Sequence record: PZ738962.1
Direction: 5' to 3' (one strand)
DNA: 64,000 nt
DNA from: a phage
Below are positions 17,338 to 63,207 of this stretch, in pieces. Position 1 is the first letter of the stretch; every line of letters starts with the position of its first letter. The notes under the pieces were generated by a model. It saw only the letters and a program-made list of their open reading frames with translations. It made no database searches and was not told where the DNA came from. A program made the position numbers and the translations under genes.

Positions 17338-18579
17338 ATGACTCATATTTTTACTGAACTGTTGCGGGAATCTACTTCCTCAGTAGCTAACCAGACAGCG
17401 CGACCGCAACTATTATCATTAACTCGCGCGGTAAACAACCTGATTTTCTCTGATCTGGTAGCAATCCAGCCAACGGATCAACCAGTATCTGCATTGTACG
17501 GCCTACGTTATCTTAATCGTGATGGTCAGATGACTTTCCGAACTGCTGCGACCTACGGTGGCGCGGCTGGTGATCGCACAGAGATTGAAGAGTTTTCAAA
17601 AGAAAAATCTTATGACGAAGGCGCACTATTCAAATCAGGCGATGTTGTATACGAAGTTGTGACCGCTGGTACAGTCGGTGAAGATGCCGAAACTCCAGAA
17701 GCTGCAATCTTTAAAGGCGTAATGACAAACAAAATTCGTTTCTACAGCGATTGTGCATCGGTAGAATACTTTGAAGATAAAAACACCGAAATTTCGTCTA
17801 CCTCTATGCAGTTTGATAAATGGCAGGTTAATGTAGGTTCTCGTAAACTGAAAACCTCATTCACGACCGAATTGATGCAGGATCTTGAGGCAAGCCAAAT
17901 CAACTCTGAAAACTCTGTAATTGATCTTCTGGCTACTGTTGCTTCCGAAGAGATCAACAAAGATATTATTCAGAAGTTGATCACTGTATCATCTCGCTAT
18001 AAAATTAAAGGGATCACCCCTGATGGCGTACTTTCTCTCGTTAGCGTTCAGGATGCACCAACACAAGCGCGTGAACTTTACCGCTACGCGTGCGAAATGA
18101 GCAATCAAATGTTGCGTACTTCCTCCTTTGCTGGTACATACGTTTTGGCTTCTTCTCGCGTGGTTGGCCTCCTGCAATCTACCGGGTGGATGGAAGAAAC
18201 CGACAATGCTCTAAGCGAAGGTCGTCTACGTTGCGGTCTGGAAGTGTACGCAGACACGACAACACCTTTCGATTATATGCTCGTTGGTTGTAAGCACATG
18301 ATCGGTGATATGGAGAGTGTAGGTTCTCTGTTCTACTCCCCATATACAGAAGCCGACGGCGCTGGAGCGTATAAGAGCGTAATTGACCCTAATAGCTTCC
18401 AGCATCATGTAGCTATTATGAATCGTTATTCACTATCTGTCAACCCATACACATCAAAAGTTGATCAGGAAGAACACCAGGTCATCAAGGGTGACGATTG
18501 GGGTAAAATGGCTGGACGTTCAGAAATGTCCTACATTTTAGGAATCGAACTGCCACCGCTTGAGATTGACAACGCTTAA
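17338..18579 (+). CDS. 24: capsid vertex protein gp24
   Basis: ORF-track start 17272 is TTG; ATG at 17338 gives MTHIFTELLRES... collinear with recalled T4 gp24 (ELLREST..., RPxLxxLTRA, LEANG/LEASQ, NPYT). Confidence 0.85.
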   Translation: MTHIFTELLRESTSSVANQTARPQLLSLTRAVNNLIFSDLVAIQPTDQPVSALYGLRYLNRDGQMTFRTAATYGGAAGDRTEIEEFSKEKSYDEGALFKSGDVVYEVVTAGTVGEDAETPEAAIFKGVMTNKIRFYSDCASVEYFEDKNTEISSTSMQFDKWQVNVGSRKLKTSFTTELMQDLEASQINSENSVIDLLATVASEEINKDIIQKLITVSSRYKIKGITPDGVLSLVSVQDAPTQARELYRYACEMSNQMLRTSSFAGTYVLASSRVVGLLQSTGWMEETDNALSEGRLRCGLEVYADTTTPFDYMLVGCKHMIGDMESVGSLFYSPYTEADGAGAYKSVIDPNSFQHHVAIMNRYSLSVNPYTSKVDQEEHQVIKGDDWGKMAGRSEMSYILGIELPPLEIDNA

Positions 18580-19167
18580 CTAAATATCTAACCAAGACAA
18601 GTCAGATCCGCCCAAGATTTTTTCGACGGCGGATCTATTTTCTTGATGATATAAGTTAAAACATGGTATCCCATGTCTACGGGCAACATAAACAGCAATT
18701 CTAGTTCCTCCAGAAACGATTCCATTAACTTCTTTCGCCCAGAATATCACACAATCTACAGGATCATCAAGTGTCTCACCTAAGACTTGAGCAACATTTC
18801 TCGAAAACAGATTTTGCATGTATAACGGTATAGAACGAGGATTATCATAAACGTGTTCTAATTCATCCATCGCCAGATTTTTTTGTTCTAAGGTTTGCCA
18901 TGCAATCACATCATGACCGTTATGCTTGTGGTCATAAAACTTCCAATTTGGAATGAAAATTTTTCTATAATCTGGATCGTAATACTTCATGAAAGCATTG
19001 TCCATACCGTAAGCCCCTCCAGAATGCGCTACAACGCGATTTTCTGACAATACCCTCCCAATGGTACTAGCCATTATCAAAATGTCGCTAGGCGCTTTTC
19101 TAGAGCCGATTAAAGCACATCTACGAAGTGGTTTTACTCCAAATAGATCTTGTAACTGGTCAAACAT
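18580..19167 (-). CDS. DprA/Smf-like (SLOG-fold) protein
   Basis: 195 aa; ALIGSRKAPSD, HSGGAYGMD, SRNVAQVLG, GGTRIAVYVARRHGIPCFNL resemble the DprA Rossmann-like domain; good Shine-Dalgarno. Confidence 0.45.
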   Translation of the reverse strand: MFDQLQDLFGVKPLRRCALIGSRKAPSDILIMASTIGRVLSENRVVAHSGGAYGMDNAFMKYYDPDYRKIFIPNWKFYDHKHNGHDVIAWQTLEQKNLAMDELEHVYDNPRSIPLYMQNLFSRNVAQVLGETLDDPVDCVIFWAKEVNGIVSGGTRIAVYVARRHGIPCFNLYHQENRSAVEKILGGSDLSWLDI

Positions 19168-19320
19168 AATATTTCCTCCATAGAAAGCAATATCATACTA
19201 CAAGTTAATAACAAATACAAGTATCCGCGTAGCGGAAGCGAGCACAGCGAGCATTAAAAACACTTCCAGTAATTGATTAATAAATGTTCGAAACAAATTT
19301 TTATTATTCTATAAGATAAG

Positions 19321-19343
19321 TCTTCGTTTTGATCATAATTTAA
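19321..19343. repeat. direct repeat copy 1 (tcttcgttttgatcataatttaa) in the AT-rich intergenic region
   Basis: identical 23-mer recurs at 19469..19491. Confidence 0.5.
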
Positions 19344-19468
19344 ACATACATGTAAAACTACACAAAAGGATATCGCTTCGCGAACTCCTACGGAGTATAA
19401 CATTTGTGTTACAATATGTAGTGATTAATAATTAACCAAAGATACATTTTCTATGTTCTAAAGATCTT

Positions 19469-19491
19469 TCTTCGTTTTGATCATAATTTAA
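19469..19491. repeat. direct repeat copy 2 (tcttcgttttgatcataatttaa)
   Basis: identical to 19321..19343, 148 bp apart. Confidence 0.5.
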
Positions 19492-19544
19492 TCAAACAGT
19501 ATTAATATTGTGCATATGTAAACTAAAATTATGTTAATAATAGA

Positions 19545-19571
19545 TACAAAAAAGCCGCCCAGAAGGACGGC
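19545..19571 (-). terminator. rho-independent terminator (minus strand) after the 145 aa gene
   Basis: gccgcccagaaggacggc stem-loop followed by T-run on the minus strand. Confidence 0.6.
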
Positions 19572-19580
19572 TAATGTTAA

Positions 19581-20537: not shown

Positions 20538-20689
20538 ACTTCACCTCATACATTCATAAACACAACAACGAATAGGACAGTAACAGTTATTAAAGCCATT
20601 TTCAACCCCATATTCATAATATTTTCCTCATAAGGTAACGCCCTGTTGATGTGTGCCATTATAAGCCACTAAATCACACTGTCAAGCAC

Positions 20690-20721
20690 TAAAAACAAAA
20701 AAGCCACCCCGAAGGATGGCT
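20690..20721 (-). terminator. hairpin plus T-run (minus strand) downstream of hoc
   Basis: agccatccttcggggtggct then TTTTTTG on the minus strand. Confidence 0.45.
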
Positions 20722-44449: not shown

Positions 44450-45938
44450 CGAATACCTCTTTTACTGTATTTGCAGTGGTCTTGTCGTAGCGAATACGTT
44501 TGATGATTGGGAGAAATAAAGAGAACTCCGGTTCATCTTCTTTACGTGATTTGCTGCGGATATACCCGTTGCATGTCATCTCAATGACTTTTCCAATCAG
44601 GTTATGACGGTCAGCCCATAACATTTCTCGGTCGAGTTCATTTCGACGATCGAACGGAATTACACGTTCGATACCATCATCACCTTTTTCGGTTGTAGTG
44701 TCGGTTAATCCCGATCCGGTGTTAGTCATCATTCGTCCGCACGCACTACGGACAGTAAAACCGCCTACCTTATTGGGGTCTTTACTATGCGGATATACAT
44801 CAACAATTTCCGCGTCGAAGTCAATCACTTCTTTAAATTTAACCTGATCTTTACTACGGCGATCTTCAAATACACCATGTAAATTTTTAAGGATAATACC
44901 TTCTAAGCCCATGTTGACATAACGATGATATACTTCGCGAGCTTCATCGATATTGTTAACTACAGTGTTTTCGATGATCTGAACACGAGGATCGTTAAGT
45001 TCTTCAACAATCTGTTTTAGTTCTTCGAATCGATCTTTATATTGCTTCGTTGCTTTCTCGTTTCCGTAATACACATCACGGTCGATAACATCCCAGACAG
45101 TGTAAACAATACATTGGGCTTCTTCTTTTGGAATAGTTCCTTTAAGTGATTTGTTGAGGATACCATTTCCGGTCTGACGATCTGCAACAACGGATTCTTT
45201 CACTGCTTCCGCTACTGGCGTTAATGGCATTTCCTCTTCTTCAAATATCCATGACAGAGTACCATCATAAACGCTTTCAACGAAGTTCTGCGCTGGTGTT
45301 TGAGAAAGGGTAGGCATATATACCAATTCGCCATCTAGAACAATTCCACGGCCTCGTAGACGCTCTAAAACCGCAAACAAATCATCAAGCCCTTGATAGG
45401 TATTACCTGAGCGGGTATAGATTGCTAATGTTTCCCCGTCAATATCAGCCATACCACGAGCGCCATCGCTTTTAAGTTGTGCATACGCCGGATACTTGAT
45501 ATTAGCAATCGTCTTATCAGAACATGACGATGCAAGGTGGCACGGTTGCTGGGGGATCAGTTTCTTCCATACCTTGTTTGCAGTGGTAGCGGAACAGCCG
45601 CATTCCAGATCACGATTCAGGACCATCATTGCAACTTTAGCATCATCCTCTGACAAGCAAGTCAGAGTATCGGTAACTAGTTGTAATGCTGCATTACCAG
45701 TTACTTGACGCGTGGCAAGTTTATTTTTAAAGACCTGTAATGCACCGGATAAAGACAATACAGACGAATAGCGAGACGGTTTATCGTATTTCTTTACGCC
45801 AAACGTAACCTGTTTGCAATATGCCAGATAAAAGCATTCTTTCAGCGTTTCATTGCTTGCTGATTCTTTCAGAATCTTTTCTTTCAGCGATGTTTTGTCT
45901 GTTGCTGCAAGCTGATTAATGATATTAAGAATTGACAT
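44442..45938 (-). CDS. 30: ATP-dependent DNA ligase gp30
   Basis: ORF-track start is GTG; ATG 45938 with GAGGTG Shine-Dalgarno; adenylation motif AQLKSDGAR (KxDG); collinear with recalled T4 ligase. Confidence 0.9.
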   Translation of the reverse strand: MSILNIINQLAATDKTSLKEKILKESASNETLKECFYLAYCKQVTFGVKKYDKPSRYSSVLSLSGALQVFKNKLATRQVTGNAALQLVTDTLTCLSEDDAKVAMMVLNRDLECGCSATTANKVWKKLIPQQPCHLASSCSDKTIANIKYPAYAQLKSDGARGMADIDGETLAIYTRSGNTYQGLDDLFAVLERLRGRGIVLDGELVYMPTLSQTPAQNFVESVYDGTLSWIFEEEEMPLTPVAEAVKESVVADRQTGNGILNKSLKGTIPKEEAQCIVYTVWDVIDRDVYYGNEKATKQYKDRFEELKQIVEELNDPRVQIIENTVVNNIDEAREVYHRYVNMGLEGIILKNLHGVFEDRRSKDQVKFKEVIDFDAEIVDVYPHSKDPNKVGGFTVRSACGRMMTNTGSGLTDTTTEKGDDGIERVIPFDRRNELDREMLWADRHNLIGKVIEMTCNGYIRSKSRKEDEPEFSLFLPIIKRIRYDKTTANTVKEVFDV

Positions 45939-46404
45939 TTTCACCTCGTTTTGTTAAACGTTCACGAATATCATTGAGGATACTACAAAATTCCGATTCA
46001 GTCAATATAGTCTTTAACGGATCAGTTCCACCTATACTATGACGTAATTTCTTATTTCCGGTAGCGAGTAATGCTTTACAAAATTCTGGGTTATTCCGTG
46101 CCATCGTAACAAATGCCAGATGTACCAGTCTGTAATAATGCTCACTCATTCGATGAATCGGGCGACCCTGAAAATATAACATGTGATTCTCAATCTTTTC
46201 AGTTCTTCCGGTTCTTTTTGCTTTGCCACCGTGCATCAAAAAGATTTCTCTTTGTCTCTGAGGGTTCTTAAATCTTAGCCCCTGTAAAAATCCTTCTGTG
46301 CTGTTAATATCGCAGCCAAATAAACGGAATGGTCTTTTATTGAAATTACTCAATTCACCCGATGGATAGGGTCCACCCGCATAGATATCAATTTCAGAAG
46401 TCAT
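45925..46404 (-). CDS. NADAR (YbiA-like) domain protein
   Basis: 159 aa; YAGGPYPSGELSNF...STEGFLQGLRF...EFCKALLATGNKKL parallels E. coli YbiA FYS..FSNFA...TSEHYFQAQKF...ELRALLLATAP (recalled). Confidence 0.55.
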   Translation of the reverse strand: MTSEIDIYAGGPYPSGELSNFNKRPFRLFGCDINSTEGFLQGLRFKNPQRQREIFLMHGGKAKRTGRTEKIENHMLYFQGRPIHRMSEHYYRLVHLAFVTMARNNPEFCKALLATGNKKLRHSIGGTDPLKTILTESEFCSILNDIRERLTKRGENVNS

Positions 46405-62937: not shown

Positions 62938-63207
62938 TTAAATATCGAGAGTGTTGGTCGGTTCGTCGATCACTCCCTTCCTGAGCGTTCTATTTACTAT
63001 ACATTCTTGTGTGATCTTGTCAATAATGGACACCGGAATATATTTCTGATAGTGACCATATTCTATAGAGTTTTCCTCTACAAACTGAGTTGTCGCTTCA
63101 AGATAAGTCAATCCCTCTTCAACAACCAGTTTTTCGATTGCAAGACCGTTTGCTGTTTTATTCGCGGCTTTTACCGCATGTTCATTAAGCATTGAACACC
63201 CGATCAT
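62938..63207 (-). CDS. 33: late transcription co-activator gp33
   Basis: 89 aa; IEKLVVEEGLTYLEATTQFVEENSI...NTLDI parallels T4 gp33 IEKMVEEFGMSYLEATTAFLEENSI...NTLDF. Confidence 0.65.
   Translation of the reverse strand: MIGCSMLNEHAVKAANKTANGLAIEKLVVEEGLTYLEATTQFVEENSIEYGHYQKYIPVSIIDKITQECIVNRTLRKGVIDEPTNTLDI

Follow-up and report, generated by a model that had tools for sequence, protein, structure and literature searches.

A DprA-type SLOG domain protein of a Krischvirus carries a candidate sliding clamp-binding tail

Bacterial DprA/Smf proteins (PF02481; 3maj, 4ljk, and 3uqz) are tied to competence genes and have a core of ∼205 residues. In the structure of H. pylori DprA (HpDprA) with single-stranded DNA (ssDNA), two ssDNA motifs, G-S/T/A-R (G50-R52) and F/L/Y-x-x-R-N/D (F140-N144), form a small, positively charged pocket that takes one base, and effective ssDNA binding is seen only for the dimer, whose interface (P183, L196, and F205) overlaps the RecA-binding surface (Wang et al., PMC3950713). 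SLOG proteins are also found in viruses. According to two papers by Iyer, Burroughs, Anantharaman, and Aravind (PMC7824862, PMC9503650), viral SLOGs occur on their own in medium and large phages or in fusion or linkage with Macro, NADAR, and DUF4326, and their association with nucleic-acid enzymes is sporadic; PMC9503650 predicts the processing or sensing of soluble ADP-ribose (ADPr) derivatives, and the earlier paper (PMC7824862) treats the DprA/Smf proteins of jumbo phages as extra ssDNA binders. The subject of the present study is a DprA-like gene on the minus strand of a 64,000-nt stretch of the phage record PZ738962.1 (the window, to which all coordinates refer). Its family, PHROG 768, is the viral SLOG family of these authors, and the fusion and neighbor counts given below reproduce their description. 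The gene and the parts of its product are as follows.

18580-19167, minus strand: DprA-like gene, encoding a stand-alone DprA-type SLOG domain protein (PHROG 768)
19174-19179, minus strand: Shine-Dalgarno sequence GGAGGA, 6 nt 5' of the ATG, read directly from the sequence
18652-19125, minus strand: Rossmann/SLOG core, amino acids (aa) 15-172
19099-19107, minus strand: G21-S22-R23, corresponding to DprA ssDNA motif 1 (PMC3950713)
19000-19023, minus strand: S49-G-G-A-Y-G-M-D56, Gly-rich loop corresponding to DprA SGxAxGID, aligned to Smf S142-D149
18796-18810, minus strand: L120-F-S-R123-N124, corresponding to DprA ssDNA motif 2 (PMC3950713)
18703-18711, minus strand: G153-G154-T155 loop, aligned with the DprA SGS loop that holds HpDprA G164
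18583-18612, minus strand: flexible linker and hydrophobic-acidic tail GGSDLSWLDI, candidate gp45 clamp-binding epitope

The initial annotation, made from the sequence of the window, had described a 195-aa minus-strand ORF with three DprA-like motifs. The open reading frame (ORF) listing indeed contains an ATG-start ORF of this length at 18580-19167, and GSRKAPSD, HSGGAYGMD, and GGTRIAVYVA were found at aa 21-28, 48-56, and 153-162, respectively. The protein is 100% identical to that of RB49, and its residues 15-187 matched positions 4-181 of the 191 in the profile phrog_768 ("DprA-like DNA recombination-mediator protein"; E = 1.2e-60). A HMMER search of 1.84 billion representative proteins (E ≤ 1e-3) returned 4,319 clusters at 50% identity, most members of which are stand-alone proteins of ∼180 aa, and tblastn identified homologs in at least 1,355 GenBank phage records, with hosts including Klebsiella, Pseudomonas, Escherichia, Aeromonas, Vibrio, and Acinetobacter. 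On the basis of the full-length profile match, the identity to RB49, and the many phage and cluster homologs, the ORF is not a chance occurrence and is a real, conserved gene. The surrounding 3.5 kb shares 99.5% identity with Escherichia phage kvi and at least 90% with 59 records; the window is that of a Krischvirus, i.e., an RB49-like T-even phage. The gene, the family, and the "DprA-like" label are already known from RefSeq and PHROGs, and the SLOG/ADPr context has been published. The gene in this window is ordinary in being identical to that of RB49 and in carrying the same RefSeq annotation, and its clamp-type tail, described below, makes its function directly testable. In large virulent phages the family is one of the more frequent accessory genes, and it is routinely labeled "DNA recombination-mediator," a label that is probably misleading.

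Profile comparisons placed the protein close to DprA but outside the set of proteins that bear this name. The sole Pfam match was to DprA (PF02481), with 22.3 bits versus a gathering score of 29.6 and coverage of aa 15-60 only, and the TIGR00732 score was 14.4 bits versus a cut-off of 191. When 130 diverse members of the family were individually scanned, weak DprA matches were obtained for 90 (best E = 8e-7) and SLOG LDcluster4 matches for 18, and none of the 130 matched Pfam LOG (Lysine_decarbox) or YpsA. Alignment by hhalign to a DprA alignment, built from E. coli Smf together with four DprA or ShosA domains of solved structure, gave 88.9% probability (E = 2.4e-6) over 145 columns, covering the whole Rossmann core and Smf residues 108-252. 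A search of the PDB with the single sequence gave a best E of ∼0.7, for HpDprA; with the profile the value improved to 3e-4, with only the N-terminal 50 residues aligned. PADLOC returned weak N-terminal matches (aa 15-61) to the DprA-like antitoxins PsyrA and ShosA, with E values of 4e-5 and 3.5e-4. The SLOG affiliation that the initial annotation had proposed was thus recovered with phrog_768, Pfam DprA, LDcluster4, and hhalign; its "DprA/Smf-like" identity holds in the sense of a DprA-like SLOG and does not extend to a bona fide DprA, as the protein falls below the Pfam and TIGRFAM cut-offs and lacks the SAM and DML1 domains. We conclude that it is a DprA-type SLOG domain protein outside DprA proper. 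Iyer et al. placed most viral SLOGs in a YpsA-like clade, whereas for this family the profiles and the fold examined here indicate DprA.

The AlphaFold2 model built from a 32-sequence alignment had a mean predicted local distance difference test score (pLDDT) of 93.9, which dropped to 78 and then to 55 in the last 15 residues. It shows a three-layer alpha/beta Rossmannoid fold with Gly-rich loops after strand 1, strand 2, and a late strand, as found throughout the SLOG superfamily. Structure-comparison values were 13.1 and 12.6 for DprA (3maj and 4ljk, respectively), 12.0 for the molybdenum cofactor-carrier protein, 11.7 for TM1055, 11.2 for both YpsA and ShosA, 10.4 to 10.9 for LOG enzymes, and 9.7 for the ThsA SLOG domain; the Foldseek ranking of structural relatives agreed. 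In the model, then, the nearest characterized relative is DprA, by a modest margin. The phage protein is a single domain of 195 aa without DprA's SAM and DML1/winged-helix domains, and its core is shorter (∼170 versus ∼205 residues). The profile alignment stops at Smf residue 252, before the region of the DprA dimer interface, where the phage protein has a short helix (aa 175-185).

The GSR, SGxAxGxD, LxxRN, and (S/G)G(S/T) loops of bacterial DprA/Smf are in register with those of the phage protein, and the corresponding residues are strongly conserved across the 130 representatives. In motif 1, Gly was present in all 130, Ser, Ala, or Thr in 126, and Arg in 128; in motif 2, Arg was present in 130, Asn or Asp in 127, and Leu or Phe at the −3 position in 118. 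The second loop has invariant G50 and D56, with S49, A52, and G54 conserved in at least 96%, and the GGT of the third loop was found in 130 of 130. On the basis of these conserved motifs, the ligand pocket is equated with that of the DprA Rossmann domain and is predicted to accept ssDNA. LOG family enzymes have the catalytic motif PGGxGTxxE, with a catalytic Glu. This motif is not present in the phage protein, the sequence of which (SGGTRIAV) has no Glu three residues past the Thr; position 158 is Ala in 124 of the 130 representatives. The protein differs in this respect from both the LOG cytokinin-riboside 5'-monophosphate phosphoribohydrolases and the ThsA SLOG sensor, in which this Glu is catalytic or ligand-binding.

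The C-terminal tail sets the T4-like phage members apart from DprA/Smf. The C-termini of gp43, gp33, and gp55 of T4-type phages are interchangeable ligands of the gp45 clamp borne on unstructured linkers (PMC2988020), and the phage protein appears to have the same kind of hydrophobic-acidic peptide on a flexible linker, to judge from its sequence and the low pLDDT of this region; in its globular domain it has no relationship to polymerase or to transcription factors. The gene complement of the phage was read from the complete genome of its close relative KFS-EC, in which gp43 ends in …SLTDLFDI, gp33 in …TNTLDI, and gp55 in …SLDQFYEIEN. An ending of the type [LFWMIVY]-D-I was present in 4 of 269 non-overlapping KFS-EC ORFs, compared with 0.43 expected from composition, and the four were gp43, gp33, a DNA methyltransferase (…LSDLFDI), and the DprA-like protein. 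Among window ORFs of at least 50 aa, a hydrophobic residue followed by D-I ends only the DprA-like protein and the following reference clamp ligand.

62938-63192, minus strand: gp33, late-transcription co-activator, C-terminus …TNTLDI (PMC2988020)

The gp45 gene lies outside the window. Within the T4-like-associated subfamily the tails include SLDFLI, DLDWLL, NLDFLM, and FDIFSL, with SDLSWLDI in the window protein. A permissive tail definition, fixed before counting, was matched by 22 of the 32 T4-like subfamily members, 27 of the 130 in the whole family, and 20 of the 269 ORFs of the KFS-EC proteome, the last including gp43, gp55, a clamp-loader subunit, gp32, and UvsX. In viral loci, 12 of 71 SLOG ORFs had such a tail versus 48 of 1,216 other ORFs (Fisher p = 5e-5). 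The SLOG tails were also paired with those of the cognate gp43: SLTDLFDI (gp43) with DLSWLDI (SLOG) in Krischvirus, SL(L/D/E)(D/N)MFDF with (R/K/T)FDIF(S/A)L in the Jiaodavirus type (JD18 and seven IMG/VR genomes), SLNDLFGDW with TLDFLW in KP15, and SLNTLFGDDW with TLDFLWC in RB43. Judged from these termini, the SLOG tail co-varies with the gp43 tail in a lineage-specific manner in four lineages. We also considered a host beta-clamp tail in the non-T4-like and cellular members and rejected it; the QLxLF motif occurred in 1 of 130, 1 of 80, and 1 of 79 proteins of these member sets, i.e., without enrichment, which indicates that the tail is an add-on of phages with a gp45-type clamp. The results are consistent with gp45 clamp binding by the tail, which we consider likely. 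A clamp-type tail of this protein was not mentioned in the literature searched, including the available portions of Iyer et al. (PMC7824862, PMC9503650).

Apart from the DprA-like protein, the tail of the KFS-EC DNA methyltransferase (locus L167, 18934-19773, plus strand, outside the window), …ALSDLFDI, is a near-copy of gp43 …SLTDLFDI, and the likeness suggests that this methyltransferase may be clamp-tethered.

The genomic context of the family was examined in 77 viral loci from IMG/VR (39 lineages at 60% identity) and in 80 bacterial and archaeal loci for which all ORFs were considered, with partners counted by locally built hidden Markov models (HMMs) after greedy clustering at 70%. Unlike DprA/Smf, the family belongs to phages and mobile elements, where its partners are ADPr-processing enzymes. 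In the cellular loci the recurrent co-directional neighbors or fusion partners were NADAR, Macro, and DUF4326, which were fused or within 5 kb in 24 of 46 clusters (all on the same strand) and fused or adjacent in 19. The corresponding viral values were 12 of 50 clusters (11 on the same strand, 9 with Macro) and 1. Fusions included NADAR with SLOG (several, ∼320-330 aa), DUF4326 with SLOG, and RecJ with SLOG, and giant polyproteins join this SLOG domain with YAcAr and LDcluster4 SLOGs and NADAR. In Vicinamibacteria/Acidobacteria metagenome-assembled genomes, ORFs of 691-692 aa (L125:3463-5541, L135, and L152) have the SLOG domain at aa 200-360; in the 692-aa L125 protein, the only one of these to which the Pfam scan was applied, this domain lies between a DarT1-associated NADAR antitoxin domain (PF22397, E = 2.7e-28) and a YAcAr SLOG. 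NADAR enzymes strip ADPr from guanine in DNA (PMC11543638, PMC11125620), T4 gp30.3 (AdfN, a NADAR protein) neutralizes DarTG1 (PMC11257639), and the T4 macrodomain protein Tk.4 (AdfM) neutralizes DarTG2 (bioRxiv 10.1101/2025.11.20.689424); the two T4 proteins shield the phage DNA against ADP-ribosylation by DarT. In light of this newer work, the partner domains point to ADP-ribosylated DNA at least as much as to small molecules.

Four giant IMG/VR ORFs of 1,269-3,056 aa also contain the SLOG domain (L076:1051-10221, L032:55-8631, L068:3643-7983, and L024:3319-7128). Pfam identified DUF7831 and DUF4326 in the L076 protein and an AlkB-like 2-oxoglutarate-Fe(II) (2OG-Fe(II)) oxygenase in that of L068, with nothing more in L032 or L024. 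These giant ORFs resemble the "polyvalent" anti-defense proteins of phages and conjugative elements.

No conserved neighbor was found outside T4-like phages in the viral loci; within T4-like phages, capsid genes and rnlB recur. The gene is directly 3' of rnlB in kv_tblp8, Gravdalen, KP15, and RB43 and, in JD18, 3' of an unannotated ORF of similar size, with its start overlapping the upstream stop in kv_tblp8, Gravdalen, KP15, and JD18 but not in RB43. A conserved operon partner was considered and rejected, as rnlB is a neighbor in 4 of the 39 viral lineages and this adjacency is explained by the T4 rnlB locus being shared by synteny.

KFS-EC encodes UvsX, UvsY, and gp32, a complete set in which no mediator is missing. 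Its single macrodomain protein, encoded at the position of tk.4, matched the local Macro HMM with E = 6e-28. The window further contains the following gene beside that for DNA ligase.

45925-46404, minus strand: gp30.3/AdfN-type NADAR protein of 159 aa (phmmer versus T4 gp30.3, E = 7.8e-24; phrog_652)

This NADAR gene is "hypothetical" in related records and of "unknown function" in PHROGs. Its identification as a gp30.3 ortholog led us to reject a replacement of NADAR by the SLOG protein in Krischviruses. The SLOG, NADAR, and Macro genes co-occur but are unlinked.

We propose that the protein is a clamp-tethered binder of ssDNA or of nucleotide lesions that would serve in DNA repair or counter-defense and would not load RecA or UvsX; resting as it does on sequence comparisons, this proposal is given a probability of roughly 0.42. 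The last 7-8 residues, on their flexible linker, would act as a gp45-binding peptide in the manner of gp43, gp33, and gp55 and would tether the protein to clamps loaded on phage DNA. At replication and recombination intermediates, the tethered domain would bind either ssDNA that is exposed there or a modified nucleotide within it; lesions in ssDNA would be recognized or presented for ADP-ribosyl-glycohydrolases of the NADAR/Macro type; and the outcome would be counter-defense against DarT-type toxins or related attacks. A role on DNA is favored because of the RecJ, AlkB-like, and NADAR (including PF22397) fusion partners, a connection to ADPr is drawn from the family-wide NADAR/Macro/DUF4326 context, and a role in recombinase loading is disfavored because the phage has UvsY for it. 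A narrower version, about which we are rather doubtful, is surveillance at the fork, in which a clamp-tethered, DprA-type base pocket would spot ADP-ribosylated or otherwise modified bases in ssDNA and either pass them to NADAR/Macro or remove them; such a protein would be a new phage counter-defense component against DNA-modifying toxins such as DarT and a new class of clamp client. If the main proposal is true, a DNA-recognition component would be added to the anti-DarT toolkit, the T4 clamp client list would be widened, and a widespread annotation would be corrected.

Several points weigh against this proposal. The third ssDNA contact of HpDprA, R170, is not conserved among the 130 representatives, the HpDprA dimer interface is C-terminal to the alignable region in a protein that needs its dimer for ssDNA binding, and the Pfam DprA score is below the cut-off (22.3 versus 29.6 bits). 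The same pocket could hold a free nucleotide, and the NAD-salvage and Nudix neighbors seen in some phages (NadV in L022; NMNAT; NUDIX) are just as compatible with a role on small molecules. As for the tail, its motif is short, 7% of the proteome conforms to the permissive definition, and, owing to the relatedness of the family members, the tail counts overstate independence. The NADAR and Macro genes of this phage lie at least 27 kb from the DprA-like gene, and neither of their products has a clamp tail among the KFS-EC termini. Binding or genetic studies of a phage family member were not found in the literature searched.

Other explanations account for part of these data. The two functions that the initial annotation had offered with reserve, ssDNA handling and nucleotide-signal sensing or degradation, are those of the two published predictions (PMC7824862 and PMC9503650, respectively), and each has its counterpart here. 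Following Iyer et al. 2022 (PMC9503650), the protein could be a sensor, sponge, or hydrolase of soluble ADPr-derived nucleotides from host immunity, such as isomers of cyclic ADP-ribose (cADPR), ADP-ribose-1''-phosphate (ADPr-1''P), or other NAD+ derivatives; it would then function alongside Macro, NADAR, Nudix, and DUF4326 proteins. The strong association of the family with NADAR, Macro, and DUF4326 would be explained in this way, as would the adjoining NadV, NMNAT, and NUDIX genes, but ADP-ribosylated DNA is now an established substrate of the NADAR/Macro partners, and RecJ and AlkB-like fusions also occur. With Ala at the position of the LOG catalytic Glu in 124 of 130 members, both DprA ssDNA motifs conserved, profiles that indicate DprA and not LOG, YpsA, or ThsA-type SLOG, and a clamp-type tail for which a small-molecule binder has no obvious use, we regard this explanation as unlikely. 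The public annotation implies that the protein is instead a true recombination mediator that, like bacterial DprA, coats ssDNA and loads UvsX or host RecA. DprA is indeed nearest by fold and profile, the ssDNA motifs are retained, uvsW and uvsY are ∼4 and ∼6 kb distant, respectively, and the jumbo-phage survey proposed an extra ssDNA-binding role (PMC7824862). This possibility becomes improbable when it is considered that UvsX, UvsY, and gp32 are already present in the phage, that the dimerization and RecA-binding region of DprA is not alignable, that the scores are below the Pfam cut-off and far below that of TIGR00732 (14 bits versus 191), and that the partners of the family are ADPr-processing enzymes, not recombinases.

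Two more specialized roles were weighed. ShosA requires ssDNA binding for its antitoxin activity (PMC12961424), and AdfN and AdfM set a precedent for orphan antitoxins in phages; a mimic that replaces labile ShosA or PsyrA after host shut-off, and so neutralizes ShosTA/PsyrTA abortive infection, can be envisaged on this basis. The PADLOC matches are limited to the shared N-terminal motifs (aa 15-61), however, and the protein is no nearer to ShosA than to an ordinary DprA; it lacks the SAM domain and the extra C-terminal helix of ShosA, its dimer and RecA-binding residues are not alignable, and no toxin genes of the phosphoribosyltransferase (PRTase) or RecQ-like type were found beside the phage or cellular homologs, which leaves an antitoxin role very unlikely. 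Least credible of all is an accessory role in RNA repair, in which the protein would assist RNA ligase 2 (RnlB), either at nicks in RNA or in dealing with repair by-products. It is suggested by the four phages with the gene directly 3' of rnlB and by the start/stop overlaps, but all cases of adjacency are in Straboviridae and are explained by synteny, the corresponding T4 locus has rnlB but not this gene, Krischviruses carry the gene without an adjacent rnlB, and the viral and cellular loci show no rnlB link outside Straboviridae.

The surroundings of the DprA-like gene are consistent with its being carried at a plastic locus. The relevant features are listed here.

17338-18579, plus strand: gene 24, capsid vertex protein, convergent neighbor given for context and outside the proposed system (annotated in the KFS-EC record, which is 98.4% identical; both the start and the stop codon were confirmed)
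19192-19220, minus strand: weak candidate sigma-70-type promoter, TTGTAT, 17 nt, TATGAT, picked by eye and below the threshold of the consensus scanner
19553-19572, minus strand: intrinsic terminator of the upstream transcription unit, with an 8-bp stem, 6 GC pairs, and a T-run; first element of a PeSL-like cassette

The gene order in the window is 24, the DprA-like ORF, three small uncharacterized ORFs (phrog_15652, 1566, and 16558), hoc, inh, and uvsW, and that of T4 is 24, rnlB, 24.2, 24.3, hoc, inh, segE, and uvsW. The initial annotation was correct that T4 has rnlB and small ORFs at this locus and that the gene adjoins the capsid vertex gene; the position reflects a plastic T-even region, with no link to the capsid. 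The stop codons of the two convergent genes directly abut (gene 24 TAA at 18577-18579, plus strand; DprA-like TAG at 18580-18582, minus strand), with no intergenic terminator. On its 5' side, the DprA-like gene is separated from the terminator by 413 nt of non-coding DNA, and the consensus scanner found no strong promoter between the terminator (19572-19553) and the ATG. This gap contains a 38-nt direct repeat (19313-19350 and 19461-19498; 87% identical, 148 nt apart), with TAAATTATGATCAAAACGAAGA present in both copies. Rfam searches of the gene flanks for structured RNA (E ≤ 1) gave only sub-threshold matches, of at most 21 bits versus gathering scores of at least 75, and left the repeat unmatched. 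The small ORFs that separate hoc from the DprA-like gene are bordered by units in which a terminator stem-loop precedes a consensus sigma-70 promoter, as at 20721-20702 followed by 20685-20658 on the minus strand; this unit (20658-20721) consists of AGCCATCCTTCGGGGTGGCT and a T-run, then TTGACA-16-TATAAT. PeSL cassettes around hoc in RB49 and phi1 mediate modular gene shuffling, and the terminator-promoter units of the window match them (PMC2839356). The PeSL-like units around the gene are consistent with a locus that is plastic among T-even phages.

Three records of homologs have labels or boundaries that differ from those above. In phage Skers (MW748999.1, locus L086, 2079-2666) the same ORF is labeled "putative RNA ligase"; as the protein has no RNA-ligase similarity, the label is probably a positional carry-over from T4 rnlB. 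In RB43 (NC_007023.1, locus L210, 299-733), RB43ORF250w is annotated from an internal Met as a 144-aa protein without the GSR motif region and represents either a mis-called start or a truncated gene. The SLOG ORF of a JD18-like IMG/VR contig (L035) is only 147 aa long with an unrelated C-terminus (…WRDESSC), for which a frameshift, an error in sequencing, or faulty ORF calling may be responsible.

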